A stretch of DNA of 64,000 nucleotides. Origin: a virus. The stretch lies in IMG/VR virus record IMGVR_UViG_3300042259_000159; one strand, written 5' to 3'. Each line of letters begins with the position of its first letter. Within the stretch, counting starts at the first letter, position 1. Made by a program: the position numbers and the translations under genes. The notes beneath the pieces were generated by a model. The model was not told the DNA's origin and ran no database searches. It worked only from the letters and a program-made list of their open reading frames with translations. Below are positions 1 through 31,408 of the stretch, in pieces.

Positions 1-407
1 GTATGGGTGTTAAGTATCAACTCGTTCGCGTGAACAACACCGTTGCGCTTTTTCTGGGCCAATCCGCCGTCGTCCATGTACCAAATGGCGATGTGGATTG
101 CAGACAGCCTGTTCAGGAGTTTCCGGTTGTAGATGTTTTTATAGCCATCTTTGTATAATATCCTTCTCAGTGTTTTACCCCATTTAGTTGTGCTTATATA
201 AGTTCGGTAGCTATCAAATCCGTTATTATTTTTGTAGGTGATGTCAGAGCACTTCACCCCTTCGGAACGTAGATACGCGATTTTCCACAGCAAGTAATCT
301 TTTTGAGCTGCGCAGTGCAGTATCGATCCGCTCCCAGTTTTACCTAAGTGTCCGTCGCCCAAGATGACACTTAGTAATGCAGTTCGTGAACTTCTGTTAA
401 ACTTCAT
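1..407 (-). CDS. LAGLIDADG homing endonuclease (N-terminal part; ORF runs off left edge)
   Basis: Minus-strand ATG at 407..405 preceded by GGAGG. My translation is MKFNRSSRTALLSVILGDGHLGKTG...IHIAIWYMDDGGL, which shows two LAGLIDADG-type motifs. Absent from the ORF track because it is truncated. Confidence 0.7.
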   Translation of the reverse strand, partial: MKFNRSSRTALLSVILGDGHLGKTGSGSILHCAAQKDYLLWKIAYLRSEGVKCSDITYKNNNGFDSYRTYISTTKWGKTLRRILYKDGYKNIYNRKLLNRLSAIHIAIWYMDDGGLAQKKRNGVVHANELILNTH

Positions 408-463
408 GTTAAGCCTCCAAGCACTGTTGTGCTGTTTAAGTCGACATTTAGTCGTTGCACCTT

Positions 464-955
464 CTACCATAAGTAGTTACGGGAGATGTCCTTATAAGAT
501 CTCCGACTACGGATGTCGTCGTAGATATGCTTAGGTATCCCCATAAGGTCTCGAATTTCCTTTGCAGAGTGTCTGCCATCGGCAATCATCTGGCAAATTC
601 TATGCACCTTGTCATCAGGGAGTGTGCTATGTGGACGCTTGCACAACTTGTTCTTGAATGCGTGCTTCCGATTTTCAGATGGCGTCACCCACTCAAGATT
701 GTTCTTGTGGTTATCAATCTTAATCCCATTCTTATGATTGACAACTTTGCCTTCTTCGTAGCCTTGCACATATGTGTAAGCCACAAGTTTATGCACAAAG
801 ATACGAAGAGTCTTTCCTTCAGAGGAGAGGGTTACTCGCTTGTAACCTGTTCTATTAAGGTCAGTGCGCAACACTCTTCCTGTTTCTGAATTTAAGACAA
901 CACCCTCTTCATTAACGAGGTACTTTTCAAAACCTTTTATTGCGACTGGTCTCAC
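464..955 (-). CDS. HNH homing endonuclease
   Basis: Motif NHKNGIKIDNHKNNLEWVTPSENRKHA (HNH_3-like) with a NUMOD4-like N-terminus. GTG start preceded by AAGGAG. Lies inside the putative intron. Confidence 0.8.
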   Translation of the reverse strand: MRPVAIKGFEKYLVNEEGVVLNSETGRVLRTDLNRTGYKRVTLSSEGKTLRIFVHKLVAYTYVQGYEEGKVVNHKNGIKIDNHKNNLEWVTPSENRKHAFKNKLCKRPHSTLPDDKVHRICQMIADGRHSAKEIRDLMGIPKHIYDDIRSRRSYKDISRNYLW

Positions 956-1041
956 ACCTAATCTCCTTATAGTAGCTTGGCTCAGGATTGTCTCTGAGAG
1001 AGTTCCCCTGAATTCACACAGTTTTACGCGGGCATCAATTT

Positions 1042-2010
1042 ACCCGCCCCGAAGTAGAAGGTCTCTCCTAGTCTTCGTCCTCTTGTGGCTTTTGTCAGGC
1101 CAAGCCAAGGCCACGGCCTTCCGTATTCGGGCTTAGTTCTTGCTTTTTCTTTTAAGGTAGAACCCTTGACGATACGGGTGTTCTTTGGGACTACAGTCTT
1201 CCACTTGGTGGCTTGCAGACACTCCGCTACCTTCCCTTCGAGGAGACAGTCATTAACATCCTTACACGGAAGCTCAGCAACATGCCCTCCGGGGAAGATA
1301 CGAACAAACTCTTCTGCTGCTTTCTGACCGGGTTCGTCCATGTCAGGGACGTACACTACCTTCTCAAACAGCTGACGAATCTTGTTTGCATGTTGGAGAA
1401 CAGCCTTCTGCACACTTCCTGCTCCTGAAGGAAGGCTCACAACAGCAGGAATGAGATGTTTGTATTGGGTGTTTGCTACGCTATCCCTGAGCATTTGATA
1501 CAAAGACATTGCATCAATCTCACCTTCGGTGATGTACAGAGTCTTTGCTCCAGCTGTGATAGCTTGTTTCCAACCAAAGAACGAAGCCCCTTTCAAAGAG
1601 CCTATAGCCCACATCCTCTTATCTTTCAGGATTCGTGCTTTATAAGCAGTGAGCTGCCCTCCTTCATCCGTGTAAGGAAAGAATACGATGTCAGGAGTAG
1701 AGCCATCCATAGGTGAGACACCTACTTTGACATTGAAATGCTCAAGGGTTTCTTTCCTCAGCTTTCTTGAAGGAAGAGGATGAGAGAGAAGACTAATTAT
1801 GTGTTTAATTTCTTCGTCTATCTCTTCCTTCGTCTTTTTAGCCACTACAGGAGTGTAGCCTTCAGGTTTGTCCTTATAGGGGTCAGGGACATATTTTCCA
1901 CAAGAGAAACAGTAGCCATCATAGCTGCCATCTTCTTGTAAAAACACTTGTAAACCTGAAGCTGTTCCACAAGAGTGAGGCAATTTTTCTACGCATACTC
2001 CTCGTTTCAT
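1042..2010 (-). CDS. T7 gp4-like DNA primase-helicase, exon 1 (Zn-ribbon plus TOPRIM; helicase domain cut off)
   Basis: Cys cluster HSCG...CFSCGKY, TOPRIM motifs YITEGEIDAMSLYQ and VPDMDEPGQKAA, and the start of a helicase domain (GLTKATRGRRLGETFYFGAG). The track ORF is 1024..2010; the exon end is inferred. Confidence 0.7.
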
Positions 2011-2093
2011 ACCTCCTCCATGTTAGAAGTTAAAGGGGGAATTAACTTCCCCCTATTTATATATACGTCACAGACGAGAGAATGTGACAATTT

Positions 2094-2879
2094 TTATTGC
2101 ATATAATTCCGAATTGCTCTAGCGTATGCTTCAAGAGCAGTGCCCATAATGCCCGGAGCAGTGTTCACTTCCAAGACGTAAGCCATATTCGCCCGCTGGT
2201 TGTAGATAACATCCACTGCTCCGAAGTCAAGCCCAAGAGCTTTAACAGCGAGGAGAGCCTGATTCTGAACTTGGAAGGGGCAGGTGTCATTTACGTCAGC
2301 TCCGTCTTTGTCAGTCCGAACAAAGATGAATCCCTTCTCATGGTTGCGGATACGCCAATCCACATTCTTAATATTCATTTCGGGATTGAGGGCTTTCCTC
2401 GTGATGTCGATGATTCTCCCGTTAAAGACATGGACACGATACTCCTGCTTTTTCTTGATGTAAGCAGTGTAGAGAGGAGCCTCAGGAACTTTGCCATGAG
2501 GCTCCACCAATTCAATTCCCTTTCCGCCATACCCAACGAGAGTGTGACGAACGACTACACAACCTCCGTTTTCCGCCCACAACTGAGCTCTGTCTCGGTC
2601 GATAGTGAAGGCGGGAAAATTGACATACTCTTCATCTTCAAACACTTCAAAAGTACGAAGCTTGTTGGAAGCAATTGCCACTGCCTCAAAGTCGTTAAGC
2701 ACACGACAATCCTCAGGGATGTGCTTAGGACGGGTAGAGCAGCCCCAGTTGAGCACCATTTTATCGGGGGTCCATTTCCACTTGCTGCGTTCAGCTCGAA
2801 TGCGGAGAACACCCAATTCAGTAGCAAGGGCTTTAGCGGACGTAGACTCCATTTTGTAAGGCAGAATAAACAGTTTCAT
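2094..2879 (-). CDS. ATP-grasp family ligase
   Basis: VVVRHTLVGYGGKGIELV, EYRVHVFNGRIID, GLDFGAVDVIY...VLEVNTAPG are typical ATP-grasp (RimK-like) motifs. Confidence 0.7.
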   Translation of the reverse strand: MKLFILPYKMESTSAKALATELGVLRIRAERSKWKWTPDKMVLNWGCSTRPKHIPEDCRVLNDFEAVAIASNKLRTFEVFEDEEYVNFPAFTIDRDRAQLWAENGGCVVVRHTLVGYGGKGIELVEPHGKVPEAPLYTAYIKKKQEYRVHVFNGRIIDITRKALNPEMNIKNVDWRIRNHEKGFIFVRTDKDGADVNDTCPFQVQNQALLAVKALGLDFGAVDVIYNQRANMAYVLEVNTAPGIMGTALEAYARAIRNYMQ

Positions 2880-2889
2880 TTTTTGTCTC

Positions 2890-3714
2890 CTAGATGTCTA
2901 TTAAAGGTTCGTCGATAAACACTGCGTTCATAAAGTCAATGCCATTGACAATAGAGTAGCAGCGATAAAGCTGTCTTTTGAACGAAGCGTTAAAGTCTTC
3001 GTAGGCAAGAGCGAAGGGAAACACTTCCCTCGTAAAGGCTATTGCGTCTTTAGACGCTTCTTTCAGGAGGGCATGAGGGTCTTCAAAAGTACAAGCTTTC
3101 TCCCGAAGAGAGAGGAGAAGGCGGAGCCACTGCTCAATCACTGCGATGTCCACAGTCCCACGCATAGCTCTGAACTCAATCGAACCATACTGAGGCGTAG
3201 CCTTGATGTTCATGCTTGCATAACGAATGTCGTTGTCATCCAAGGCATTAAAGTTCATGCTTTTTGCAAGACCCTCCAGTTTGAAGATGAGTCCTTCCGC
3301 ATCAAAGGAAGAGAGGCAGAAGAGATTGCCTTTACGCGTTTCTCCACAAAACTCCAGAAGAGCGTCTTCATAAAGCAAGTAGAGTATAACAAAGTTGAAC
3401 CACTGGCCCACTGTCAATTTTTGAACGTTAATATGAACATGAACAGATGTTCTGTCCGAGAGGACAACATCCGCTCTCCTGAGATGTTCTCTCAGCATAC
3501 GGAGCCGACGACAAGCCCCCGGGAAGCTGATGGGTTGAGGAAGGACGTATTCCTTCGGGTCATGCCCCCCAATAGGACGAAGAGAAGGTTCGATATGTAC
3601 CTGCCACCCATTCACCTGACGGGGGAGGTCACGACCTTCCACCTCTATTTCAATGCCAATGTCCCCATTCTTAGGGACCAACCCCAGCATATCGGCAATA
3701 GTTATTTCAGCCAT
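2890..3714 (-). CDS. Amidoligase (Amidoligase_2 / GCS2-like COOH-NH2 ligase)
   Basis: IGIEIEVEG, TSVHVHINV, YGSIEFRAMRGT match the pattern I recall for the Amidoligase_2 family. Confidence 0.6.
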   Translation of the reverse strand: MAEITIADMLGLVPKNGDIGIEIEVEGRDLPRQVNGWQVHIEPSLRPIGGHDPKEYVLPQPISFPGACRRLRMLREHLRRADVVLSDRTSVHVHINVQKLTVGQWFNFVILYLLYEDALLEFCGETRKGNLFCLSSFDAEGLIFKLEGLAKSMNFNALDDNDIRYASMNIKATPQYGSIEFRAMRGTVDIAVIEQWLRLLLSLREKACTFEDPHALLKEASKDAIAFTREVFPFALAYEDFNASFKRQLYRCYSIVNGIDFMNAVFIDEPLIDI

Positions 3715-4268
3715 TCTTCTCCCACCACCTCTTTGATGTAGTTAGCATAGAAGTTGTCTGCCACAATAAACTTTTCTTCATCAATATCTGCCACAGGCAT
3801 AGTCCGATAGAAAAGACTCCGCTCCCCAATAGCGAATTCCCTATGGAAGGCTATGCTTCTTCTTCGAGAACGGTCTTTCTCAAAGCATTCTTCCACCGTA
3901 GGGTAGTCGGCTATAATGGTCTTTGCCAAGTCTCTTACATTGGGTTGAGCACTTATCCCTACATAGTTGGAACGAAGGTCCAGACGGTCAAGAACCAATC
4001 CTTGCTTCTGCTTCCGATGGGGCCAGCGAGCCACATACATTGAGACCCCAACTAGGGTGTTCACATAGCCCAAAGGAGGAGAGGCAAAGTCCCATCCCTC
4101 ATCCCTAATGTGGATGCGAGCATCTTCTCCTTCTTCATCAAGAATGTCATACCCATTAGCAAATCCATCTTCCACATGCCGGATGTAGAAGGGGCTGCCA
4201 TTATACCTCACTACCGTTCCTGCCAGACGCATATTAGCGTCATGGTCGTTATTAAATTTCAACAGCAT
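3702..4268 (-). CDS. hypothetical protein within the amidoligase cluster
   Basis: 188-aa ORF overlapping both neighbours by a few nt; no motif recognised. Confidence 0.5.
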   Translation of the reverse strand: MLLKFNNDHDANMRLAGTVVRYNGSPFYIRHVEDGFANGYDILDEEGEDARIHIRDEGWDFASPPLGYVNTLVGVSMYVARWPHRKQKQGLVLDRLDLRSNYVGISAQPNVRDLAKTIIADYPTVEECFEKDRSRRRSIAFHREFAIGERSLFYRTMPVADIDEEKFIVADNFYANYIKEVVGEEWLK

Positions 4269-5043
4269 GGGGCACTCCCAGATTGTACTTCTTAATAAGA
4301 GCGACTGCCGAATCTACATCCGAAGTGTTGATGATGTTGGTGATGTCTCCCTCTTCCTCAGCCAAGTCTCTTCCTGCAAGCAAGTCAACAACAGCTTGTC
4401 GGGAAGCGGAGAACACCCAACGCATCAGACGCTCTTCTTTAAGCCAAGCATTGGACAGAGTGCGATATTCCATGCCGTAAGGCTTAACACGAAAAGCCCC
4501 TGCCTTCCCGTAGAGTTCTCTCCTTTTGGTGTCCTTGTCGAACAGAAGAGAAGGCAATCCAAGGTAGAAATCCAGCTGCCGTGCAAGCTGACACGAAGCA
4601 AGGAAAGCTCCGAAGTCGTTCACATCATGCTCCATATAGCCGATATGAACATGCCCAGCAGCAGTGCGGAAGTCTCGATTACCGTCAGGAGAAGGGTTGA
4701 TGTCCTGCGTCCACCCATTGTAGTCGGGGTCACACCCCAATTCAAGAGCGGCAGGAGGCTGAGTAGCCATATACTCCTTGCCAAAATGAGCCACAGGCTC
4801 AATGACAATTTCCTCCTTCACCATACGACGAAGCTGAGCGAATACATGCTCAATGTTGCTGACGAAGGTGTTTTCATCAGCTGCCGGCTCAATGTTAAAC
4901 TCAAGAGCCATACCATCCACCTGTACAGCCCCCTTCTCAACAGGGAAAGGGGCTTCCTTAGTCCCGGGAATGAGGCCGTAGCCGGAGATGAACTTCCCAT
5001 TGTCCTTCACAAACAGTTCGGGGTCGGTGCCAATGTATATCAT
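4252..5043 (-). CDS. phiEco32-like COOH-NH2 ligase type 2
   Basis: N-terminus MIYIGTDPELFV, then DGMALEFNIEP and AAGHVHIGY, resembling the phage COOH-NH2 ligase type 2 family. Confidence 0.55.
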   Translation of the reverse strand: MIYIGTDPELFVKDNGKFISGYGLIPGTKEAPFPVEKGAVQVDGMALEFNIEPAADENTFVSNIEHVFAQLRRMVKEEIVIEPVAHFGKEYMATQPPAALELGCDPDYNGWTQDINPSPDGNRDFRTAAGHVHIGYMEHDVNDFGAFLASCQLARQLDFYLGLPSLLFDKDTKRRELYGKAGAFRVKPYGMEYRTLSNAWLKEERLMRWVFSASRQAVVDLLAGRDLAEEEGDITNIINTSDVDSAVALIKKYNLGVPHAVEI

Positions 5044-5054
5044 GTTATTCCTCC

Positions 5055-6266
5055 TTAAAAGGGTATATTAGAGTCATACAGGGAGACAAAGTCTTTGTCT
5101 TTCAGGCATTCCAAACAAACAGAATCGTATTCCGAGATGATTGCGATTTTCTCATTCCTCTCATAGAACTTCCCGCACCAGTCGCAGGAGTGGTAAGGGT
5201 GATGCGGGTAGCTTATCTTATACTCAATCTTAGGGGCTTCTTCCTCCTTCTGATTGATGGGAATGATGGAACCCACAGTGAAATACGTCTTCTTGTCGAG
5301 CGTTTGCCCGATGAACAATATCTTTGCCCGAAGGGGGACGCCCACAGGAACATCCGAGTTGCCATATGCGAAGTGACGAGCTTCAATATCCTCTCCAATC
5401 ACCTCACCGAAGTAGTCGACATTCTTCCCATATGTGCTTTCCCTTTTGTGGAACTTCACAGTGGCATACTCATCTTCTCGATAGGTGCGAAGATTCCCCA
5501 CTGCTTTTCGTGTTGCCCTCTCCCAATTATTCCACCCTTGGTGGATGTACGTTGTCTTGACAGGAGGCGTGTACGAGCAAGGAGTGAGCTTCTTGGTAGT
5601 GAGTTTAAGGCCGTTGCTCAAGTTCCACGAGTAGAGAACATTTTCTTTCACTTCGCAAGCTTTCATGCAGGGTATTTTGTTTCTCCAACATGCCGCATGA
5701 ATGAAGAAAGGCTCAGAAGCCCAGAACACCACCTTCTTTTCTTTGTCAAGCATATAGTAGAGAGGCCGCTTATCGTTCCGCAGCATGTTGAGCGTGTCTT
5801 CGTTTTCGTCATACCAGACAAGAGCAGCTGCCCCGCAAAGATTCTGCCAAGTGTCTTCCACACCATGTATGGACATATGGTGGTAGATGTTGGAAGAATC
5901 AACATCGAATTTCTTGTAATCCGCCAGAAGATGTTGGGCTGTAAGTGTTCCGTTATGCACTCCTGTAATGTGCCCATGCTGAAACGGATGAGCGTTTTCC
6001 TCGATAATAGTTCCTTTCGTTGCTGCTCTATTATGCCCTATAAGGCATTTCAACACTTGTGAAAAGATAGGCTGTACTTTACCAATGGTGACAAAGTCAT
6101 AGGCTGCCAGAAGAGATTTTTCGATAGTGACTTTCTTCGTATGGCGATTTACTCCAGCGAGACCCACGGAATCAACTCCGCGTATTTCGTCAAAGATGAG
6201 CATATCCTTGACTGCCTTCTCCTCTTTCGTTGTAATCAGTCCAGCTGCTCCAATAATACCACACAT
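5055..6266 (-). CDS. Class II (Ntn) glutamine amidotransferase with C-terminal Zn-ribbon region
   Basis: N-terminal MCGIIG (catalytic Cys2), GHNRAATKG, and C-terminal CDWCG...CLEC. Confidence 0.7.
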   Translation of the reverse strand: MCGIIGAAGLITTKEEKAVKDMLIFDEIRGVDSVGLAGVNRHTKKVTIEKSLLAAYDFVTIGKVQPIFSQVLKCLIGHNRAATKGTIIEENAHPFQHGHITGVHNGTLTAQHLLADYKKFDVDSSNIYHHMSIHGVEDTWQNLCGAAALVWYDENEDTLNMLRNDKRPLYYMLDKEKKVVFWASEPFFIHAACWRNKIPCMKACEVKENVLYSWNLSNGLKLTTKKLTPCSYTPPVKTTYIHQGWNNWERATRKAVGNLRTYREDEYATVKFHKRESTYGKNVDYFGEVIGEDIEARHFAYGNSDVPVGVPLRAKILFIGQTLDKKTYFTVGSIIPINQKEEEAPKIEYKISYPHHPYHSCDWCGKFYERNEKIAIISEYDSVCLECLKDKDFVSLYDSNIPF

Positions 6267-6391
6267 AGAATACTCCTTTTTCGCACAGAAAAGGGGTTTT
6301 AAGCCCCGTTTATTTGTTTTGTGGACAATGAGATGTCATTGCATCTACCATCGCTTAGAACCAATTCTCGAAAGAATTGGCTCCAAGAGGG

Positions 6392-7006
6392 TTAGATGCC
6401 GAATACATCCTTCAGTACAGTGAAGAACAGCGTTCGAGTGTCATCCTTCCCACCATATTCAGGATGGGGTTGGAAGCACAGGCTCTTAGTCTTCGGGTAG
6501 ACGACAATTTCAGCTTGGTCGTCACGAAGAACAGAGCGCACCCTTCTTTCAGCCGAGAGAAGAGTGTTGTCGATGCAGTCTTCCACTTCTCCGAATCCTT
6601 CAAGACGACCATGACGGGCAGGAATCATCATCTGGTGGTGAGTGGAGGTGACTTTGTACTTTTCTCCCCTCCAATCGAGAGTGTGTGTGCCTCTGATGGC
6701 ATGACCCGTGACATCCTGCCGCATACTTCCACCATTCATCACATTGAGGAATTGCCCCCCACGGCATATTCCCACCAATGCTGCGTTGTGTTGTGTGGCA
6801 AAGAGGTAGTTGGTTATGTCAGCAATGTCTCGCTGAATACAATTATGGGAAGCCCTGTTGAGTTCACCATACAGAGAAGGGGTGACATCATATCCGCCAG
6901 AGAACACAAAGAGGTCAGCTTCCTCCATCTGTGTTGTCATCTGGTAGCCTGCATTGAGGAACATGGTGGACACAGCAATGTCTTGCGTAGACATAAAGAA
7001 TTTCAT
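6392..7006 (-). CDS. Class I glutamine amidotransferase-like / peptidase C26 (gamma-glutamyl hydrolase type)
   Basis: Nucleophile elbow GICRGGQFLNV and THHQMM motif. Confidence 0.65.
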   Translation of the reverse strand: MKFFMSTQDIAVSTMFLNAGYQMTTQMEEADLFVFSGGYDVTPSLYGELNRASHNCIQRDIADITNYLFATQHNAALVGICRGGQFLNVMNGGSMRQDVTGHAIRGTHTLDWRGEKYKVTSTHHQMMIPARHGRLEGFGEVEDCIDNTLLSAERRVRSVLRDDQAEIVVYPKTKSLCFQPHPEYGGKDDTRTLFFTVLKDVFGI

Positions 7007-7815
7007 CGAAATCTCCTCAGGTTGTCTATTGTGTTGACGACAATTTCATCAGTGCCGGGAATATCTTTGTCGTATTCCAGCATGAGAGTATTGCCATTCC
7101 GTGTCACTCTTTTCCCGCTCTCTTTGAGAGCAGATTCAATAAGGTCTATGACAAGAGGCCGATTGGTGTAACGGTTCAGAGTTTTTTCTACTCCTCTGCC
7201 CCAGTCACCCCCATTAAACGGGTCATCCAAGTGCCTTTTTTCCAACTGCTCCCCGTATATGAAGGCGGACGCAGACCTCACCGTAAGACCAGTATCGAAG
7301 AGGGAATGAGGTCCTCTTCTCGACGCAATATATTTCTCCCCACGATAGAAGTAGGCACTAAGCAACGCCACGGGTGGAGACACTTCAAACTTCTTCATAT
7401 ACTCCACCATCTTTTCTATACGGAAATCCTCATGGACGTCCCACGGAAGACGAGCAAGAGTAGCTGCCGTCAGCAAGATGTTTCTGGGAGCGTCCAGAGA
7501 AATGTACACCCCTCCTTTCTTCTTGTTTGTGTTGTTCTCATAATAGCCCTTGAAGCCGCTTTTCTTGAACAGCCAAGGCCAGTAGTGTTCTTTCAAGAAC
7601 TCACCTTCAGACCTAATACCTCCTGCCGGCCCGGGGACACAGCAGAGGTGAGTATATCCATTTTTGAGGGTGTGCGAATTCTTGAGCCATGCAAGGCACA
7701 CTTCGTTCGGAAAAGATTCACACTCTCTCGTTTTTTCGTTCACGAGAAGGTAGGGTTGAGACCTTACGTTATCATCCTCCTGACATTTCTTCACTTCCTT
7801 AAAGAAACTCCTCAT
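7003..7815 (-). CDS. hypothetical protein (first gene of the amidoligase cluster)
   Basis: 270-aa ORF, ATGA-type overlap with 6392..7006, RBS AAAGGAG upstream. Confidence 0.5.
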   Translation of the reverse strand: MRSFFKEVKKCQEDDNVRSQPYLLVNEKTRECESFPNEVCLAWLKNSHTLKNGYTHLCCVPGPAGGIRSEGEFLKEHYWPWLFKKSGFKGYYENNTNKKKGGVYISLDAPRNILLTAATLARLPWDVHEDFRIEKMVEYMKKFEVSPPVALLSAYFYRGEKYIASRRGPHSLFDTGLTVRSASAFIYGEQLEKRHLDDPFNGGDWGRGVEKTLNRYTNRPLVIDLIESALKESGKRVTRNGNTLMLEYDKDIPGTDEIVVNTIDNLRRFR

Positions 7816-7835
7816 GTTTCTCTCCTTTCTTCTCT

Positions 7836-7882
7836 CTGTATAATATATATATATATATTATATAATAATATATATTATACAG
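7836..7882. repeat. AT-only palindrome (14-bp perfect arms CTGTATAATATATA / TATATATTATACAG)
   Basis: Read directly; sits immediately upstream of the RBS of 7003..7815. Confidence 0.8.
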
Positions 7883-8077
7883 AAGTTAATAGTTTAGTTA
7901 AGAGCAGGAAATCCTGCCCTCTCTAAAGTATTAACAGTAAGGGTCTTCGTCCTCTATCGACCAGTCAATCGGCTCCTCAGGCATAATCGTCACCATTTAT
8001 TTGCGAGTAATCTATTCCTTGTTATTGAAAGTTTCTTGTCACATTTTCCATTTTCCAACGTATAATATATTAAGAGA

Positions 8078-8479
8078 CTAGTTCTTGCGACACCAGATTC
8101 CGTCACAAGACGGAGGCTTATTCATCTGGTCAACGTGGAGAGACACACTCTCAATAGGGTATACAATCATGTTATCGTCCCCTTCTTCTTCCACATTGAG
8201 GTAGTAGGACGACTGTTTTTCAAAGTCAAAGTACCTCACTGATGTAACTTTCAGACAAACATGAGCGTTCTCTTTGTAGAAGAAGTCCCCAACATCAAGG
8301 TCGGTGAAAGCCCTCTTCAGGCTAGTATGTCGGCTAACAACTGCAACTCTGGTCATACTCTCTTCTCCTTCGTTTTCTTCCTTACCTTTCAGATAGGGAA
8401 TTTTCAATATTGCAAACACGCTGATACCCATAGCCGCTACCAGAAAGAAAGCTTCACTCCATAACATAGGAGGCTCCAT
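8078..8479 (-). CDS. hypothetical protein (N-terminal TM segment)
   Basis: ORF track. Hydrophobic FFLVAAMGISVFAIL. The start may be the second ATG at 8467 (GGAG upstream). Confidence 0.4.
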   Translation of the reverse strand: MEPPMLWSEAFFLVAAMGISVFAILKIPYLKGKEENEGEESMTRVAVVSRHTSLKRAFTDLDVGDFFYKENAHVCLKVTSVRYFDFEKQSSYYLNVEEEGDDNMIVYPIESVSLHVDQMNKPPSCDGIWCRKN

Positions 8480-8481
8480 GA

Positions 8482-8691
8482 TTAGCGTTCAAGCCAAGAA
8501 TACTCTTCAGTAATACGGAAAAGTGAACAAAGTGGGTATTTATATACGACACGCTTCTTATCTTCCTCAACCAAAATACAGAAAAGACCGCCTTTTGTAT
8601 ATGTGTTGACGACATTCTCAAGCGTAATTGGTTGGCTGGATTCATTTCTATGTATTGAAATTTTCATACCTTTCTCAATAGCGTCAGTCAT
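8482..8691 (-). CDS. hypothetical protein
   Basis: ATG at 8691 preceded by AAAGGAG (MTDAIEKGMK...). Confidence 0.4.
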   Translation of the reverse strand: MTDAIEKGMKISIHRNESSQPITLENVVNTYTKGGLFCILVEEDKKRVVYKYPLCSLFRITEEYSWLER

Positions 8692-8963
8692 TGTACTACT
8701 CCTTTTAAGTATGCGCACCCTACGTATATAGAGCCGATGTGGAATTTCGTACCCTTAAGTTCAGGCTGTTTCCTTCCAACTTTCTTCAGAAATCTTCTGA
8801 AAGCACGGAGGGTACGACAGGGAGGCCCATGACTGGAGAAGCCTTTCTCTGTCGTACACTCTTCAAGCGGAAGCCAGATGCCATCACAATACCAGAGACC
8901 ATCGGACGCAGGTCTCCAGAAGTAACGTCGCAAACGGGCACCTCGCGAGCTAAAAAGTTTCAT
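8688..8963 (-). CDS. hypothetical protein
   Basis: ORF track; overlaps the start of the downstream gene by 4 nt. Confidence 0.4.
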   Translation of the reverse strand: MKLFSSRGARLRRYFWRPASDGLWYCDGIWLPLEECTTEKGFSSHGPPCRTLRAFRRFLKKVGRKQPELKGTKFHIGSIYVGCAYLKGVVQ

Positions 8964-9028
8964 CAGTCTCCCCTACCTTGTAAATGGCACTATTTTTCAA
9001 AACCCTGTCTAGGCTTTTTGCAGACATC

Positions 9029-9274
9029 TTACTTCCTCCTCTCCATCCATATCTGACGTATCTCTTGGAAGAGACTAAGACCTTCATGAAGAATAAGTGC
9101 AAGCACCCCTACCCAAGACAACACCGCAACAATAGCACAAACGATGAGTGCCTCACCAAATGTGTTGACATAACATCCATACGTCCTTTGTAGGCCAATA
9201 AGGACTAGGCAGCCTATATATGCAACAACTACCCCGCTCAGGTAAGTGGAAACGACAAGCTCTATTCCCGTCAT
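9029..9274 (-). CDS. small membrane protein
   Basis: 81 aa, with two or three hydrophobic segments. Confidence 0.4.
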   Translation of the reverse strand: MTGIELVVSTYLSGVVVAYIGCLVLIGLQRTYGCYVNTFGEALIVCAIVAVLSWVGVLALILHEGLSLFQEIRQIWMERRK

Positions 9275-9427
9275 TTTACTTCCTCCGTGCTTTGTCCAGC
9301 ATCATCCTCTGGTTTTCAGACAGTTGTCCCCAATACACTTGGGGATTGTACAAGGCTTTCCACGAGGGCAGACGCAGTTCCTTAGCCAGTGACTTTTCTA
9401 TTGCGTTAGGCATAACCTTCATCCTTG

Positions 9428-9766
9428 TTAATATTCATAGTATTCGCGTAAAGCGTCGTTGTTCCATGCCGGCTCATACACAGGCTTGTCATGTGCTTCT
9501 GCGAGCTTGTGAAGCACGTCGACAATGAAGGAAACGCCATTCTTTGCTTTCTTCGGATTGTTCTTCAGCTGGGCTTCAGCCGCAAGTCTCCCTACCCACT
9601 TCACATATCGGTCAGAGTTGGAACACTTCGCCACACCATACTCCACCTCTCCACTAGGGAGAGAACGGTATGCCACCGTAGCTCCACCGAAAGGATGATA
9701 AGGGTAGAAGTCACCGTTACGGTTGATGTAGCTGCGGCGGTAGTGAAAGAACGACACTTTATCCAT
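9428..9766 (-). CDS. hypothetical protein, PFGGATV paralog family member 1
   Basis: Motif HPFGGATVAYR...YGVAKCSNSDRYVKWVGRLAA, shared with 9784..10050 and 28094..28573. Confidence 0.55.
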   Translation of the reverse strand: MDKVSFFHYRRSYINRNGDFYPYHPFGGATVAYRSLPSGEVEYGVAKCSNSDRYVKWVGRLAAEAQLKNNPKKAKNGVSFIVDVLHKLAEAHDKPVYEPAWNNDALREYYEY

Positions 9767-9783
9767 TTCTATTCTCCTTTGTC

Positions 9784-10050
9784 CTATTCCCAGCGACCAC
9801 GGTAGTCAGGTGTATTGTATGCTGCTCTTATGTACGCTACTATTCCATCGAACACGTCTTTTTTCATTGTTAAAGGGGCAGACAGAGCGTCTATGTATGC
9901 GAGGTTACGCCCGATGCGTTTCACATACTGTTCAGAGTTACAGCATCGGGCAAGGCCAAATGCTACAGCATCCCCTACCTTGCGGTAGAAAACAGTAGCG
10001 CCACCAAACGGATGAAGACGCAATTCACCTTTACGGCTTATGTAGGGCAT
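9784..10050 (-). CDS. hypothetical protein, PFGGATV paralog family member 2
   Basis: HPFGGATVFYR...FGLARCCNSEQYVKRIGRNLA. Confidence 0.55.
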   Translation of the reverse strand: MPYISRKGELRLHPFGGATVFYRKVGDAVAFGLARCCNSEQYVKRIGRNLAYIDALSAPLTMKKDVFDGIVAYIRAAYNTPDYRGRWE

Positions 10051-10069
10051 TGCTCCCTTCTCTTAATTG

Positions 10070-10312
10070 CTACAACACATCACACACACGAGTCCCATTG
10101 TTATAGTAGTATCGGTATTCCCGCACCTTAACAAGTTGTCCTTCCTTGTTAGGTGACATTACACCAATGGAAATGGAAGGAAATATTCCTAGCTCCAATT
10201 CATGCAATGCTACCTTATAAGCGGCGTCGAATGTTGAAAACAATTGGTATCGGTAGGTGTATACGGACATTACACTGTCTTCCAGAATAATTTCATTCCG
10301 CAGACTTTTCAT
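10070..10312 (-). CDS. hypothetical protein
   Basis: ORF track; GAGGAA RBS upstream of the ATG. Confidence 0.4.
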   Translation of the reverse strand: MKSLRNEIILEDSVMSVYTYRYQLFSTFDAAYKVALHELELGIFPSISIGVMSPNKEGQLVKVREYRYYYNNGTRVCDVL

Positions 10313-10428
10313 ATTATTTCCTCACTTTCTTTCATCAATCGATTTGCAATCCCACCGAATGATGATAGTAGCTTATGCTACCAACAAGGGAAGGGGCGAC
10401 GCATAGACGCATCACCCCTTCCCTTGCT

Positions 10429-10797
10429 TTAGAACACCATATCGAGAACCGCCGACACGGCTTTGTTTAGTGTATGGAATCTTGCTTCTTCTTCCATCCT
10501 ATCGCCCGTGATATTCACGAGCACAATGCTATCGAGGTGCGGAAGGAGGGTATAGTCCTCCTCGTTGATAGAAAAGAAAAGCCCTTCCTCGCTTTCATAT
10601 GCGGCGATAAGGCGCTTGGCTACGTCCTGTTTATCCTTCTCCAGCCGGAGACGCTTTACGGCCTCGCTGTTTTCAACGTAGTCATGGCAATCCGTTCCAC
10701 CTTTACGGGCAACGAACGCACCACCGCCACAAGTCAGGGGCTTTCCTTCACCCCACCGGCAAGTCTGGCAATATTGTGTGTTTTGCATAGCAGTCAC
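10429..10797 (-). CDS. hypothetical protein
   Basis: ORF track; Cys pair YCQTCRW near the N-terminus. Confidence 0.4.
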   Translation of the reverse strand: MTAMQNTQYCQTCRWGEGKPLTCGGGAFVARKGGTDCHDYVENSEAVKRLRLEKDKQDVAKRLIAAYESEEGLFFSINEEDYTLLPHLDSIVLVNITGDRMEEEARFHTLNKAVSAVLDMVF

Positions 10798-10866
10798 TAC
10801 TCCATTGGTTATGGTTCATCACATAATTGCAAGCCCTATTGCTAGGGCCTGCTATATGGGACGAAG

Positions 10867-11532
10867 CTAATCAAGGGAAATGCCGCAATCAAATGCGAGG
10901 CTTTTCACACGGTCGAGAAATTCTTTCATATTGTCCTCGGGAATGTATTGTCCCTCGGCCAGTTTTTTCAAGTCAGACTTGATTGCATTGACTGCTTTTC
11001 CCTTGTACGGTTTTTCAGGCTTGGCAGGATTAAAATCATACCATGACTGAGCCGCGAGGCGGGCTTTCACGCTCATGACATTAAAAGACTTGGCGATAAG
11101 CTTCCCTTTTTTGTACGGTTCGCCGTTCGGATCGAGAAGCGTTTCACCGTCCGCTTTCTCCTTCGCCGTTTCGAATTTCCCCTTTTTCATATTCCAGCGT
11201 ATAGCGGACGCGCTTGCGTCCAGAACCGGCTTGTTGTCCTTATCGTATTGTATGGGACCGTCGCAGAATACCCATAACATATAGTTTTGTACTGCCGTGA
11301 TGTTAATTGCCCGTGTGCCGCCGATACGTGTCATGAATTCGCTCATAAGGCGGCAACCTACTTCGCCGTCAGTATCTTCCGCCTTCGCCATTACAGCGTC
11401 GACGATAACCGCCTGGACGGCTTCGCGGAAGGACAATGCCATTGCCTCGATATCCGGCATGGCGGCTGCGAACCTTTCAGCATGCTGGCGGACAACAGGA
11501 TTACTAATCTTGCTTGCGTCGAAGTTGCTCAT
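10867..11532 (-). CDS. hypothetical protein
   Basis: ATG at 11532 preceded by GAGGT (MSNFDASK...); the track ORF extends to 11592. Confidence 0.5.
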   Translation of the reverse strand: MSNFDASKISNPVVRQHAERFAAAMPDIEAMALSFREAVQAVIVDAVMAKAEDTDGEVGCRLMSEFMTRIGGTRAINITAVQNYMLWVFCDGPIQYDKDNKPVLDASASAIRWNMKKGKFETAKEKADGETLLDPNGEPYKKGKLIAKSFNVMSVKARLAAQSWYDFNPAKPEKPYKGKAVNAIKSDLKKLAEGQYIPEDNMKEFLDRVKSLAFDCGISLD

Positions 11533-11868
11533 GGTCTTTACCTCACTTACGTTATTTGTTTGTGGTATGAATGAACAAGCCACCTTGCGCATTCAAGCCC
11601 ACAAACAAACAAAACCTTGCTAGGGCTTGTTTGTCTATGGCGCACAAAGCGTCTATCCTACTTTTCGCCATAGTCCATGATGCGCGTTCCCCGATAGCCT
11701 AGGAATAATTTGTCCTTTCTAAGCGAAGAAATACGCGGAACCATGCTACTTTTCGAATATCCGCTTTGCTTTTCGGAGCGGTGGCCCGCTGCAACCACTT
11801 AAGGAGTCTAGACCACGTCACGCCGCTGAATTCTATCAACGGTCTGCGATGTAAGACGGTACGGAACC

Positions 11869-11897
11869 TATATAGGACGGTTACCTATCGGTGTCAA
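11869..11897 (-). promoter_or_regulatory. sigma70-type promoter (TTGACA-N17-TATATA)
   Basis: Minus strand reads ccggTTGACAccgataggtaaccgtccTATATAgg, about 330 nt upstream of 10867..11532. Confidence 0.5.
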
Positions 11898-12502
11898 CCG
11901 GTTTTTTCGTCCGCTTGCCGTACCGTGCCGGTATGCCGCTGATATAGCATACGCCGTGCCAACGTGTGCAACATGTTGAAATATCAGCACTATTTTTTGT
12001 GCCCTGAAACGCTATGCCCTAACCGCTTTATGTAAACCGTTGAAATGACTAGCTTTTCATATAATGCCGGTTAAAAATTTTGTACCGCTTTTCTGCTAGT
12101 GAATGAAAACTATGGCAATGCCGTAATGTAAGCGCCTGATATAATTGGCGGTTTAAAAAATTATACCATTTCAGGCAAAAGTATAAAAAATTGAACCGAC
12201 CATTTTCTTGTATAATGAGACGCGATTGCAATTATTATGCCAAACTGAATGGAACGCCTTGTGCTTATGCAATTGCCATGCCAATTGATATGGCACAATA
12301 AGTGCATAAGCAAGCATTGTGCCAACAAAGTTATCAGCCAGTTTAGCATGAAGCGTGCCATAATGTCATAAGTGAATGATAGCAGCATGATAGCATGGTT
12401 CAGCAATCTGAATATAGAATGTTATGTCTCGTTTATTGATCATTGCATATAAGCAAAATGATCAATAAGAGAGACAATATTATATAATAAGTATATACTT
12501 GT

Positions 12503-12527
12503 GTCGAGCGTAAGCGAGACGATATAA
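12503..12527 (+). repeat. direct repeat GTCGAGCGTA(A)GCGAGACGATATAA, copy 1
   Basis: Second copy at 12821..12844 differs by a 1-nt indel. Confidence 0.8.
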
Positions 12528-12618
12528 TACTATATAGAATACACGTAAGTGCCCATAATGATTGGACTATAGGTGAATGAGTAGTTGAAACATGATAGCA
12601 GTAGGGTAATGACCTATA

Positions 12619-12668
12619 TATGCCGTAGGCGATATAGGATACCAGATAAATATGCCGTAGGCGATATA
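12619..12668 (+). repeat. tandem pair of TATGCCGTAGGCGATATA (18 bp, 14-bp spacer)
   Basis: Identical 18-mers at 12619..12636 and 12651..12668. Confidence 0.85.
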
Positions 12669-12820
12669 ATATTCCCTAACCGATATAGATTTACAGGGGG
12701 GTAGTAGGGGGTGAGGGGGTGTCCTTTTGGATGCACTACCCCTTAAAAATTTCTCATAGAAATTATCGCCCCAGCCAAAAATATTTTCTCCAATTCCCCC
12801 GCACATTTACACACAAATAT

Positions 12821-12844
12821 GTCGAGCGTAGCGAGACGATATAA
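12821..12844 (+). repeat. direct repeat GTCGAGCGTAGCGAGACGATATAA, copy 2
   Basis: See 12503..12527. Confidence 0.8.
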
Positions 12845-13057
12845 AAATATTTTGTCACACTTTTGATTTTCTTACGTATATACATATAGGGGGATAAGGG
12901 GGGAAGAGGAATAAGTATTATAACGAAAGAAGAAGAAGAAGAAATAAGATGGTAGATATATAAAGGGGAGGGCTCTGCTAAGAAAGCAGCCCTCCCCTTA
13001 TAAGAAATAGATGAGGAAGAGAGAGGCTAACATAACAAAGGAAAAGTAGGAGAGAAG

Positions 13058-14956
13058 ATGGCTAAGATAAACATTCCTAATATTTCTTCTCCTTATGCGT
13101 CTCAGAATGCTTTGAATGAAAGATTCAAGATGATTGAGGACGTATTGAATGACAAGGTGTTGTGGAGAGACAACCCTATCGGAGAAGTGAACACGTTAAA
13201 GAATGACATAGACCTAGGCAACAACGACCTGCTTAATGTAGGCTTAGTTAGTGCTTCGTCTATTATGGTGCAGGGGCAGGGGCTAGAAGAAGGCATTACA
13301 GAAGCCTTGTCTCGTTGTACTGAAAAGGCTGACGAGGCTGAGGCTTCTGCTAATGCAGCTGCTGCTAATGCAGCCAGTGCTGAGGCTTCTGCTATTAGGG
13401 CGGAGGCTGCTGCGTCTCAAGTTGACCTGCCTGCCGTCTCCCCCGGAGATGAGGGGAAAGTTCTTACAGTTTCTCCTTCGTTAGAGAAGGAGTGGGCAGA
13501 GGTGCCTGAGGAGCTCCCTCCTTACAGCGTTGCAGACGAAGGGAAGGTTCTTAAGGTTTCTTCGTTGGGGGAGACAGAGTGGGGGATGGAAGAGAAAGAG
13601 CTTCCTTCCTACACACCGTTGGATGCTGGAAAGACCCTGTCTGTTAACGAAACAGGAAACGCAGTAGAGTGGACAGAGCCTCCTAAAGGGAGTGTTAATA
13701 TTGCTCCACAAACGATAGTGAGGGCTCAAGTGGGTCCTCGTCCCGACGGCTGGACGGCTGCTGACTGTGACGCCCCCGTGCAGAGTATGTCTGCGGAAAG
13801 CGCAGTCATCGTGAATAACGATGTACTCCCGGTGTTCTCTAGCTCTAACAGCAGCGGTGGGATGACGGTGTCAGCGCAGTCCATTTACAGTAGCACCTAC
13901 CCTGTATGGAAAGCGTTCAACAAGCAGGCCGTGAATTATACGGATAGTTGGCAATCAGGAAATGACTTCGCAAGTGACACCGGAGTTGGTAGCAGTTGGA
14001 TTCAAGTTGACATGGGCAGTCAGTTCAATGTGGCGCGTATCGTCCTGTATCCTCGAAATGAAGACGGGACGTTCAACACAAATTTCCCGTATGACTTCGA
14101 TATTGTCATAGACGGCGTGAAGGTGAAAGAGGTCAGAAATGCTATCCCGCCAAGCAGCACTGCGCGAATGGAGTTCGACCTAGATTCTCCGGTAACTGGG
14201 CAGATAGTCCGGTTGGACATTACGAGGACAGGCGGGGCCAGTGTGACTTCACTAGGCCAGTTTTATGTCTATGATGCGGAGGTAGTAAGTGGGAGCGCTC
14301 TTGTACAGATAGCCGCAGGGCTTCAAGTCGCTTACGCAGATGAGGGCAGGGTACAGTTGTCTGATGTTTTAGATTCAGCACATGCAGTTGACCTGTCGGC
14401 AGCGGCGGACGGGACGAGCTACATTTACGCGGATCTCTCGGAGGATGGGGCTTTCTCCGGTTTCGGTGCGACTGCCGTTGCGCCTGAGGTCGGGGCGGAA
14501 AAGGCCGACACATTGGCCGACCACTTCAACCCCGCAGAGGTTGTAATGTACAACGTCGCGGGTTCACCAGTCCGCCGCGTCTACATCGGCACGGCTGAAA
14601 AAGCGTCCGGAGCGATTACGAGTGTTCACTGCTATAGCCTTGGAACAGTAGTCACTATGCCCATAAACAGCGGCAACCCTGTGGCTACGCAGTCCCTTGT
14701 TCTTGATGAACTTCCTTATGCCTACAGCAGGATGATGCAGGTTGAACCGCAGTTGTACGGTGAAGGCATATGGGGCAAAGCTGGATGGATTTATACGTCT
14801 GCTGGCCTCGGTGTGTCGGCCACCGTGCGAAAAGAGGCAATCCGTGTTGTGACAGGCACTGGTCTTACTGCACAGTATGCGTCTATTGGTGGTGACTTTA
14901 ATGCAAACATACCGAGTCCGGCAAAAATCCGCGTCACGGTGCACAGGGGGTACTAA
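13058..14956 (+). CDS. tail fibre / receptor-binding protein with discoidin (F5/8 type C)-like domain
   Basis: The N-terminus (NERFKMIEDVLNDKVLWRD...DIDLGNNDLLNVG) is typical of tail fibre or spike adaptors. Three tandem (D/A)EGKVL.VS...EW repeats. SWIQVDMGSQFNVARIVLYPR resembles a carbohydrate-binding discoidin fold. Confidence 0.6.
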   Translation: MAKINIPNISSPYASQNALNERFKMIEDVLNDKVLWRDNPIGEVNTLKNDIDLGNNDLLNVGLVSASSIMVQGQGLEEGITEALSRCTEKADEAEASANAAAANAASAEASAIRAEAAASQVDLPAVSPGDEGKVLTVSPSLEKEWAEVPEELPPYSVADEGKVLKVSSLGETEWGMEEKELPSYTPLDAGKTLSVNETGNAVEWTEPPKGSVNIAPQTIVRAQVGPRPDGWTAADCDAPVQSMSAESAVIVNNDVLPVFSSSNSSGGMTVSAQSIYSSTYPVWKAFNKQAVNYTDSWQSGNDFASDTGVGSSWIQVDMGSQFNVARIVLYPRNEDGTFNTNFPYDFDIVIDGVKVKEVRNAIPPSSTARMEFDLDSPVTGQIVRLDITRTGGASVTSLGQFYVYDAEVVSGSALVQIAAGLQVAYADEGRVQLSDVLDSAHAVDLSAAADGTSYIYADLSEDGAFSGFGATAVAPEVGAEKADTLADHFNPAEVVMYNVAGSPVRRVYIGTAEKASGAITSVHCYSLGTVVTMPINSGNPVATQSLVLDELPYAYSRMMQVEPQLYGEGIWGKAGWIYTSAGLGVSATVRKEAIRVVTGTGLTAQYASIGGDFNANIPSPAKIRVTVHRGY

Positions 14957-15306
14957 TGGCAATTTACGCAAAAGTAGGCGAGAGCGTGCAATATGTAATG
15001 ACAGAGGCTCAGGCACGGAAAATGCCTGACTTGGTTTTGATGTCAGGGGAGAGACCCTCCCTAGGACATATTGCTCAAGCAGATGGAACATGGTTGGGTC
15101 CAGACAGCATACAAAAACAAATAGAAGCCATCGAAAAAAAGTATAAGACAAAAGAAGATGCTATAAAAGAACGCCTCCTGAATATACGATTATCTGATGG
15201 AACTTCAGAAGAGGCAAGAACCCTTGAAATACAAACGGCGTGGGCAGGAATACAGGCTGCAAAAACACAGGAAATAGAAACAATTTTACTAGGAGGTTTA
15301 GAGTAG
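14956..15306 (+). CDS. hypothetical protein (possible tail-fibre chaperone)
   Basis: Start overlaps the tail-fibre stop (TAATG). The function is inferred from position only. Confidence 0.4.
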   Translation: MAIYAKVGESVQYVMTEAQARKMPDLVLMSGERPSLGHIAQADGTWLGPDSIQKQIEAIEKKYKTKEDAIKERLLNIRLSDGTSEEARTLEIQTAWAGIQAAKTQEIETILLGGLE

Positions 15307-15461
15307 TGCCTACACTTCATTGTTCGGCTTGTGATAGTAAGAATCTTACACAGGAAGGCTTACCAGCTTCAGCCATCAAGTATGGCTATTATAGGTGTTT
15401 AGATTGCGGAAACCTCGTAAGACCTATTGTTATGCCAGACCTTGTAAACGAACCACTATAG
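15306..15461 (+). CDS. small Zn-ribbon protein
   Basis: GTG start overlapping the upstream stop; CSAC...CLDC pairs. Confidence 0.35.
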   Translation: MPTLHCSACDSKNLTQEGLPASAIKYGYYRCLDCGNLVRPIVMPDLVNEPL

Positions 15462-15470
15462 GGGGTAATT

Positions 15471-15752
15471 ATGTCTCTTGGTTACGTTCCACTACGTGCA
15501 GGAGACAGCAGTGATTGGTTGGGGAGAGATATTGTTATTAATATCTCTTCCTCATTAGACCTCACTGGCTGGTCTGCAAAGTTCAAATTGCAAGAAGTCA
15601 CTAAAGACTTCCCTGATATTTCTTCTAAACAAATATCTATTGCACTAACAAAGGAGGATACCTCCGGCCTTACTAAGGGCTTCCATTACGGGTATCTTAA
15701 AATATATGACAATGATGGTGGAAGCATAAAATCAGTTGGAGGGTTTATCTAG
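15471..15752 (+). CDS. hypothetical protein
   Basis: ORF track. Confidence 0.45.
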   Translation: MSLGYVPLRAGDSSDWLGRDIVINISSSLDLTGWSAKFKLQEVTKDFPDISSKQISIALTKEDTSGLTKGFHYGYLKIYDNDGGSIKSVGGFI

Positions 15753-22685: not shown

Positions 22686-22698
22686 AAGGAGTAGTGAA

Positions 22699-31042: not shown

Positions 31043-31051
31043 GGGATAGCA

Positions 31052-31393: not shown

Positions 31394-31408
31394 TACAGGA
31401 GGAGAAAG

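Follow-up and report, generated by a model that had tools for sequence, protein, structure and literature searches.

The phage amidoligase module, known from phages phiEco32 and LUZ24, was reportedly described by Iyer, Abhiman, Burroughs and Aravind in 2009 (PMID 20023723). Passages in papers on LUZ24-like and other phages cite the 2009 set as a putative cell-wall or peptidoglycan modification module (PMC10580990, PMC11945000), so that the comparative-genomics prediction mentioned in the initial annotation of the locus studied here does exist, as quoted in those passages. The full-text literature that we searched contains no experimentally demonstrated product or substrate of the module, as the same annotation had stated. 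Here, we analyse a copy of this module carried by a stretch of viral DNA of 64,000 nucleotides (nt) (IMG/VR record IMGVR_UViG_3300042259_000159, referred to as the window, to whose positions all coordinates refer). Seven genes, P1 to P7, all on the minus strand and located where they had been annotated, fill positions 2094–7815. Judged from its gene families and their order, the locus is the Zobellviridae-type version of the phiEco32/LUZ24 module, that is, an already widespread and annotated gene set and not a new kind of cluster; what is new here is the detail and the compactness of this copy.

Like the modules of phiEco32 (gp77–gp88) and LUZ24 (gp14–gp22), the locus encodes a PF14395 ligase (P4), a PF12224 ligase (P6), an Ntn-type amidotransferase (P3), an ATP-grasp enzyme (P7) and a member of the gamma-glutamyl-cleaving enzyme families (P2), with a protein of about 190 aa (P5) between the two glutamine synthetase-like (GS-like) ligases, and it lies directly upstream of a primase/helicase gene. 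It differs from them in that (i) the Ntn gene precedes the PF14395 ligase gene, whereas it follows the PF12224 ligase gene in phiEco32 and LUZ24; (ii) a peptidase C26 is found where these phages have a gamma-glutamyl cyclotransferase (GGCT); (iii) a protein that we call U (P1) replaces two unrelated upstream proteins of 300–400 aa; (iv) all proteins are shorter. The order U–C26–GAT2–CNL–P5–AL2–ATP-grasp–primase/helicase, where GAT2 stands for the Ntn enzyme, CNL for the PF14395 ligase and AL2 for the PF12224 ligase, is that of phages CVT22 (gp50–gp67), PA11 (gp001–gp008), O4 and CW02 and of an oyster phage. Compared to these Zobellviridae modules, however, the present copy is compact, with no small open reading frames (ORFs) in between, and P1, as its U protein, has diverged too far to be picked up by searches with one sequence. 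P4 is 50–58% identical to Zobellviridae proteins (Citrobacter CVT22, Salinivibrio CW02, Pseudomonas PA11, O4 and oyster-metagenome phages), and megablast searches of the GenBank phages, made with the cluster and with a 24-kb part of the window, returned no nucleotide-level relative. An identical P4 protein is encoded on a JGI and IMG/VR contig of 91,584 bp and on several contigs of 43–50 kb; two of the latter, compared across the seven genes, are sister strains with 81–99% nucleotide identity.

Relatives of the PF14395 ligase occur in 319 GenBank phage records and in more than 509 IMG/VR loci. Hidden Markov models of the module families were run on all fetched loci, 60 of which have enough flanking sequence to be informative. 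The PF14395, PF12224, Ntn and ATP-grasp genes form a same-strand cluster here and in 80 or more viral loci, and the order GAT2–CNL–P5–AL2 is found in 80 of 85; the CNL–P5 and P5–AL2 junctions overlap or lie within 20 nt in 70/82 and 74/82 cases, respectively. Where the ligase relatives are only 25–40% identical, the same families are still linked, in shuffled orders. Beyond annotated phages, 185,579 species genomes contain only 47 loci with a PF14395 ligase relative, nearly all in metagenome-assembled genomes and many on contigs of about 45–50 kb, which look like mis-binned phages; only two matches belong to isolate genomes, on scaffolds of about 1 kb. The module family is thus essentially restricted to phages. 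At three loci (L125, L126 and L128), distant PF14395 relatives (identity about 35%) occur in linkage with two C26 genes and a GGCT gene, and the module profiles detect no PF12224, Ntn or ATP-grasp gene there; the module may exist at these loci in a reduced or highly diverged version.

The catalytic motifs of the module proteins are kept across 73–93 homologues per family, and the ratio of nonsynonymous to synonymous substitution rates (dN/dS) against the sister strains is at most 0.25 wherever substitutions suffice to compute it; P1–P7 are therefore real genes under selection. The gene content agrees with the initial annotation, which had recognized named domains in five proteins: all the motifs it listed are found, i.e. 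GICRG and HHQ in P2, MCGI in P3, IGTDPELFV in P4, and IEIEVEG, HVHINV and EFR in P6. Pfam and PHROG profile searches bear out the families proposed for P2, P3, P4, P6 and P7, and four of the seven proteins (P2, P3, P4 and P6) score above the curated Pfam cut-offs. The description of the cluster as a tightly overlapping operon is only partly right: there are three overlapping junctions (P1/P2 by 4 nt, P4/P5 by 17 nt and P5/P6 by 13 nt) and two short gaps (11 nt for P3/P4 and 10 nt for P6/P7), and the P2/P3 junction is split by a structured spacer of 125 nt containing a terminator-like hairpin.

P4 (4252–5043, minus strand, 263 aa) is a phiEco32-type COOH–NH2 ligase: it matches PF14395 with 46 bits (cut-off 25; E = 5e-12) and phrog_3815 over its full length (4e-88). 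The P4 family displays 44 invariant columns across the three phage lineages, and searches of the PDB by sequence or profile returned no solved relative. P6 (2890–3714, minus strand, 274 aa) is an Amidoligase_2 (PF12224) carboxylate–amine ligase, with 38.4 bits against a cut-off of 22 (1.6e-9) and a phrog_7469 match of 3e-56; its motifs GiEiE.EG, svHvH.N and yGs.EFR are conserved in 86 homologues. Here too, no solved relative was retrieved by PDB sequence search, and PDB searches with PF12224 were empty. Aligning the PF14395 and PF12224 families with hhalign gave no significant score, only a shared R-T-x-x-H-V-H motif being aligned. P7 (2094–2879, minus strand, 261 aa) is, by its profile matches, an ATP-grasp enzyme (phrog_2599, 4e-80), with a Gly-rich loop and an E.N motif conserved in its homologues, although its Pfam score for Dala_Dala_lig_C (18.4) stays below the cut-off of 24. 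Among characterised proteins it appears closest to the RimK/MptN-type alpha-L-glutamate ligases, with NCBIfam matches to MptN (1e-9; 37.9 bits versus a cut-off of 350) and to the RimK family (3e-8; 33.6 versus 143.4) and PDB matches to Ddl and RimK at E values of 0.02–0.07, scores that do not make it a demonstrable RimK orthologue. Two ATP-grasp genes are present in 7 of the 60 informative loci; in L020, L022, L029, L032, L034, L049, L050 and L094, one ATP-grasp gene lies between the C26 and Ntn genes and another after the PF12224 ligase gene. The second gene may provide an extra ligation step in those phages.

P2 (6392–7006, minus strand, 204 aa) has the peptidase C26/class I glutamine amidotransferase fold: it scores 63.5 bits against Peptidase_C26 (PF07722; cut-off 20.5; 3e-17) and matches phrog_7218 (7e-42). 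Its catalytic triad is intact, with C81 in the GICRG motif and H181 and E183 in the HPE motif; the THHQ motif is also present, and the three motifs are at least 90% conserved in 73 homologues. The weak NCBIfam matches of P2 are to gamma-glutamyl hydrolases, including gamma-glutamyl-GABA hydrolase. The survey points in the same direction, for all 60 informative loci encode either a C26 protein or a GGCT. More specifically, 57 loci have a U gene and 57 a C26 gene, the three loci without C26 carry a GGCT gene, and three loci carry both, while LUZ24, phiEco32 and the Pseudomonas phage Rembedalsseter have a GGCT and no C26. C26 and GGCT thus appear interchangeable in the module. Because GGCT replaces C26 in other phages, a gamma-glutamyl-cleaving role is suggested for C26 as well, and P2, which here would represent the cleaving partner (C26 or AIG2/GGCT) of the ligases, probably acts as a gamma-glutamyl hydrolase rather than as a source of ammonia.

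P3 (5055–6266, minus strand, 403 aa) consists of an Ntn class II glutamine amidotransferase domain (residues 1–250, nucleophile Cys2) and an unassigned C-terminal region. The former matches GATase_6 over residues 73–185 (58.9 bits, cut-off 27; 7e-16) and phrog_4736 over residues 1–248 (1e-78), and its motifs MCGIIG, GHNR.aT.G, nAHPF and HNGT are conserved in 86 homologues. No Pfam family matches residues 250–403, and no acceptor or synthase domain of the kind present in GlmS, PurF or AsnB was detected in any lineage. The name "GlmS" given to such proteins in phage records is based on the N-terminal domain alone. The C-terminus of P3 carries a four-cysteine motif (C361, C364, C384 and C387; 5106–5186, minus strand) that is at least 90% conserved in the 86 homologues and predicts a metal-binding zinc ribbon; equivalent paired-cysteine motifs are present in the P3 counterparts of LUZ24, Rembedalsseter, PA11, CW02 and phiEco32. 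Altogether, both amidotransferase folds are there, with intact active sites, but the dual glutamine amidotransferase of the initial annotation overstates the case, since the C26 protein appears to swap with GGCT and the Ntn domain comes without a recognisable acceptor domain. Note that P3 also shows a weak match to EgtC.

The two proteins that had been left as unknowns, P1 and P5, turned out not to be orphans: both are conserved components of the module. P1 (7003–7815, minus strand, 270 aa) has no Pfam or PHROG match, and tblastn against phages gave nothing. A word-indexed search of 5.8 billion proteins retrieved only three sequences, with 84–96% identity, and a full phmmer search of 1.84 billion representatives only its own cluster (more than 80% identical) and repeat-protein artefacts. 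However, O4 gp59, CVT22 gp67 and oyster-phage ORF54, which are mutually homologous, occupy the position of P1 before the C26 gene; pairwise BLASTP and shallow hhalign comparisons of P1 with CVT22 gp67 and O4 gp59 were suggestive and not significant. We built a U profile from about 50 proteins encoded upstream of C26, gathered from 80 fetched related viral loci. With this profile, P1 reaches 36 bits (E = 2e-9 in a set of 8645 ORFs) and the best unrelated ORF 11 bits. On this basis P1 belongs, as a divergent member, to a family that had no name so far, the U family. Consistently, P1 lies in the U position, its gene overlaps the C26 gene by 4 nt, and it retains C40, R122, D126 and H170. Among 57–70 U proteins, C40 and R122 are both about 100% conserved and E/D126, H170 and S86 are near-invariant, most members having a Glu at position 126 where P1 has an Asp, a pattern that suggests an enzyme. 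The dN/dS of P1 is 0.25. The U-family profile found no relative in the PDB, Pfam no match in ten long U members, and LUZ24 gp14/gp15 and phiEco32 gp87/gp88 show no detectable relation to U. U and C26 are translationally coupled in most Zobellviridae-type loci, their genes overlapping or lying at most 20 nt apart in 52/64.

P5 (3702–4268, minus strand, 188 aa) belongs to phrog_11055, a family listed with undefined function whose members stand beside the ligase in Zobellviridae. The P5 family covers all three phage lineages, including the LUZ24 gp17 and phiEco32 gp85 types, and always stands between the two GS-like ligases: a P5 profile search recovers the Kuravirus and Bruynoghevirus groups with E values of 1e-9 to 1e-31, and P5, LUZ24 gp17 and phiEco32 gp85 share the N-terminal signatures RL.G, GY, R...G(L/V), R.(W/F)A and YK..VG. 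Seven columns are invariant in an alignment of 26 sequences (D10, T18, G67, Y68, R85, G90 and R143). The AlphaFold2 model of P5, of moderate confidence (pLDDT 70.5), is mainly made of beta strands and matches only SH3-like barrels (SH3-like, Tudor and KOW); a Foldseek search of viral models retrieved only its own uncharacterised family, with TM values of 0.6–0.76. One of the 19 named homologues is labelled "virion structural protein", an isolated annotation to which we gave no weight. P5 is thus a core part of the module that is specific to phages; as modelled, its fold does not resemble that of an enzyme, and it could act as an adaptor or a specificity subunit.

The spacer that separates P2 from P3 (6267–6391, minus strand, 125 nt) contains a 15-bp hairpin, a second hairpin, the sequence GGGGCUUAAAACCCC followed by a U tract (terminator-like, 6293–6307) and an AGGAG ribosome-binding site. 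Its predicted RNA fold has an energy of -37.6 kcal/mol (z = -3.5), it is 99% conserved among strains, and an Rfam search of the whole cluster, spacer included, gave no match; the spacer may serve in attenuation or in processing. The genes on either side of it differ in their identity to a sister strain, with 81% for P1 and 92% for P2 against 98–99% for P3–P7. Since the spacer is structured and terminator-like and strain identity changes across it, the module appears to consist of two units, namely U–C26 (P1–P2) and a five-gene ligase unit (P3–P7), which would also be its two units of expression. In another strain (L006, at 6167–6991 of its own sequence), only the PF12224 ligase gene drops to 87% identity, which suggests that recombination swaps single module genes among mosaic strains. 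Upstream of P1, a consensus scan picked out a candidate sigma-70-like promoter (7874–7901, minus strand; TTAACT-16-TATAAT, 10/12 matches), weak evidence as the region contains 14 sites of this kind, where chance alone would give 9.5.

What could such a module do? Starting from what the locus displays directly, i.e. protein families and folds, catalytic motifs, gene order and tight junctions, we deduce each chemical step, the nature of the substrate and what P1, P3 and P5 do. Our preferred reading, to which we give about as much belief as doubt, is that the module is a pathway for ligating and trimming links of the gamma-glutamyl or peptide type, its substrate being something other than DNA: in the infected cell, a self-contained, ATP-dependent set of enzymes would make and then edit amide bonds (gamma-glutamyl or short-peptide) on a soluble molecule. 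P4, P6 and P7 would each form one amide bond via an acyl-phosphate intermediate. Glutamate would be the likeliest building block, and gamma-glutamyl the likeliest link, because the nearest characterised relatives of P7 are MptN and RimK and because the ligases come with a cleaving partner, C26 or GGCT. P3 would either deliver glutamine-derived ammonia to one of the ligases, resulting in the amidation of a carboxylate, or cleave a gamma-glutamyl amide like EgtC. P2 would remove a gamma-glutamyl group, as GGCT would do in other phages. P5, SH3-like and devoid of catalytic activity, would assist the two GS-like ligases as an adaptor or as a specificity subunit, and P1 would be a further enzyme, possibly thiol-dependent, working with P2. 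As for the substrate, a cytoplasmic peptidoglycan precursor peptide is a tentative candidate, and so is another small amine or carboxylate metabolite, e.g. a glutathione-like or polyamine conjugate; a protein seems rather unlikely, and DNA or a nucleotide improbable.

This scheme has functional analogues. In the Puu (PuuA/PuuD), ergothioneine (EgtA/EgtC) and butirosin (BtrJ/BtrG) pathways, a GS-like or ATP-grasp ligase adds a gamma-glutamyl group that a C26, Ntn or GGCT enzyme later removes, and glutathione is built by the same two ligase types, GshA and GshB. The likeness to Puu, Egt, Btr and GshA/GshB lies in the pairing of a ligase with an enzyme that removes gamma-glutamyl groups, and is not one of orthology: sequence matches are far below cut-offs, and the tailoring enzymes that intervene in those pathways are absent here. 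Similarly, MurT/GatD and LtsA/AsnB1 combine a ligase with a class I or a class II glutamine amidotransferase, respectively, and amidate a stem-peptide carboxylate. However, their folds are those of Mur ligases and asparagine synthetases, none of which was detected here, where the ligases are GS-like and ATP-grasp enzymes.

Among the other explanations, the one that survives best, while still tentative, is the 2009 proposal itself, according to which the module makes, or amidates, an altered stem peptide on a cytoplasmic peptidoglycan precursor, thereby blocking superinfection or preparing the wall for lysis. The enzyme logic resembles that of stem-peptide chemistry, which involves Ddl-type ATP-grasp enzymes, gamma-D-Glu links, and amidation of class I (MurT/GatD) and class II (LtsA/AsnB1) types, and all seven module proteins appear soluble when their sequences are inspected, as expected if they act on cytoplasmic precursors. 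The proposal is also the one relayed in passages of PMC10580990 and PMC11945000. On the other hand, domain searches of the module turned up neither a Mur-ligase fold nor any recognisable domain for binding UDP-sugars or lipids, and the module goes with replication genes, not with lysis genes. In addition, its relatives lie on contigs binned with very different lineages, a point that suffers from the unreliability of the binning.

A second alternative, which we regard as unlikely, is protein tagging: a protein of the host or of the phage would receive glutamate, or a short peptide made without ribosomes, from the ligases, with P5 as adaptor or target and C26 or GGCT as eraser. Parallels are RimK, which acts on ribosomal protein S6, pupylation by PafA and Dop, which are both GS-like carboxylate–amine ligases, and GGACT, which cleaves epsilon-(gamma-glutamyl)lysine. 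The proximity of P7 to RimK/MptN-type glutamate ligases agrees with this idea, as do the SH3-like, Tudor and KOW barrels matched by the P5 model, which are typical protein- or nucleic-acid-binding modules, and the conserved zinc ribbon at the end of P3, often an interaction element. But three ligases and an Ntn amidotransferase exceed the needs of known protein-glutamylation systems; P5 lacks any invariant Lys or Glu, and its C-termini vary, without a conserved acceptor there; and our search found no proteomic report of such a modification. A broader version, more doubtful still, is a conjugation system in which a short non-ribosomal gamma-glutamyl peptide would be built and attached reversibly to a specific macromolecule of host or phage origin, either a protein or the ends of DNA, the SH3-like barrels of P5 and the zinc ribbon of P3 providing targeting and U–C26 (or GGCT) erasing the mark. 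If true, viruses would have their own counterpart of pupylation or polyglutamylation.

The initial annotation had also envisaged a modification of DNA or nucleotides. In that case, the ligases would attach amino acids or amines to a base bearing a carboxyl or amino group, or to a nucleotide precursor, and this would account for the module keeping its place by primase/helicase in all three lineages. Precedents exist: CmoY ligates glycine to 5-carboxymethylcytosine in DNA using ATP (PMC12783734), and some viral contigs carry amidoligase and amidotransferase domains together with genes for thymidine hypermodification (PMC8989533). CmoY, however, has a different, asparagine-synthetase-like fold, and the annotated loci that we examined contain no hydroxymethylase, 5-HMUDK, aGPT-Pplase, CmoA or CmoX gene in or beside the module. 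Moreover, Rembedalsseter carries a LUZ24-type module, and the comparison of its native DNA with whole-genome-amplified DNA by nanopore sequencing revealed no DNA modification motif, only nick-associated drops in coverage (PMC11780129). The Rembedalsseter data and the missing base-activating genes weaken the DNA option, short of eliminating it, and leave it with a small probability. A last explanation, to which we likewise give little credence, is a catabolic or neutralising one, in which a host amine would be captured and destroyed by Puu/Pau-like polyamine gamma-glutamylation or a host small-molecule signal removed: it agrees with the PuuA/PuuD-like pairing of a GS-like ligase with a C26 hydrolase and with the weak match of P2 to gamma-glutamyl-GABA hydrolase, but three ligases and an Ntn enzyme are more than it needs, and the annotated loci examined lack the oxidase and dehydrogenase genes that the Puu route requires between ligation and hydrolysis.

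The preferred reading, a ligation-and-trimming pathway, has its own weaknesses. The chemistry is deduced from fold-level homology, the matches to characterised enzymes being far below the family cut-offs, and no member of the module has a known substrate, product or phenotype. The replacement of C26 by GGCT is based on only three Zobellviridae-type loci and two other lineages, and some loci have both. As P2 and P3 both possess intact glutaminase-type active sites, a true double amidation is possible. The AlphaFold2 model of P1, computed from a four-sequence alignment, is unusable (pLDDT 42.8). Finally, the nanopore data concern a LUZ24-type module in another phage, and rare or terminal modifications would escape them.

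On its downstream side, the module adjoins a replication gene, as had been annotated: the primase (Toprim) part of the primase/helicase gene (1024–2010, minus strand), recognized by Pfam and PHROG, starts 83 nt downstream of P7. Between the two, a consensus scan identified a GC-rich hairpin (2034–2054) that is terminator-like on both strands. The primase/helicase gene, intact (554 aa) in sister strains, is split here by an HNH endonuclease gene (464–955), which follows the Toprim part of 328 aa, and a LAGLIDADG gene is present on the source contig just beyond the start of the window; the split looks like a homing-endonuclease insertion.

The rest of the window (16000–64000) has its own primase/helicase (21051–22685) and DNA polymerase (22534–25119) genes and a GC content of about 40%, versus about 46% for positions 1–16000. 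In an independent assembly (SRR35174882), the amidoligase cluster and the DNA ligase gene (46872–47999) lie on separate contigs, and the source contig of 91.6 kb may be made up of two joined phages, each about 45 kb long. The second replicon-like part encodes two DNA methyltransferase-like proteins (40415–41116 and 42593–43417) and a PAPS-reductase-like protein (43635–44351), with thymidylate kinase, thymidylate synthase and dUTPase genes near 40415–44351. Further on, an anaerobic ribonucleotide reductase-like ORF of 1123 aa (48849–52220) aligns to phage NrdD only over residues ~550–1122, and the public record of this region shows a weak match to an intein-splicing domain. The window contains eight tRNA genes, among which a tRNA-Leu(taa)/tRNA-Leu(tag) pair occurs twice (55123–55314 and 58023–58202), the two pairs flanking a transposase-like gene (56728–57846; phrog_506, 2.5e-119). 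Two stretches (30600–35200 and 38100–40200) have very few ORFs of at least 120 aa on either strand. Stop-codon recoding was considered and rejected, since reassigning any single stop codon yields no long ORFs; these stretches probably hold many small genes.

In conclusion, this copy is an ordinary member of a module that few other multi-enzyme gene sets of lytic podophages match in spread, being found in Zobellviridae, Bruynoghevirus and Kuravirus; the Bruynoghevirus carriers include Pseudomonas phages isolated and characterised as therapy candidates. Our analysis describes a seven-part Zobellviridae-type module with two sub-units and adds the U and P5 families to the parts list; it also suggests that the so-called class I amidotransferase is probably a gamma-glutamyl hydrolase, and it lowers the likelihood of a DNA modification. 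As the module appears to be restricted to phages and always stands beside replication genes, what it makes is probably specific to viruses, a metabolite or a modification with a part to play in the infection.

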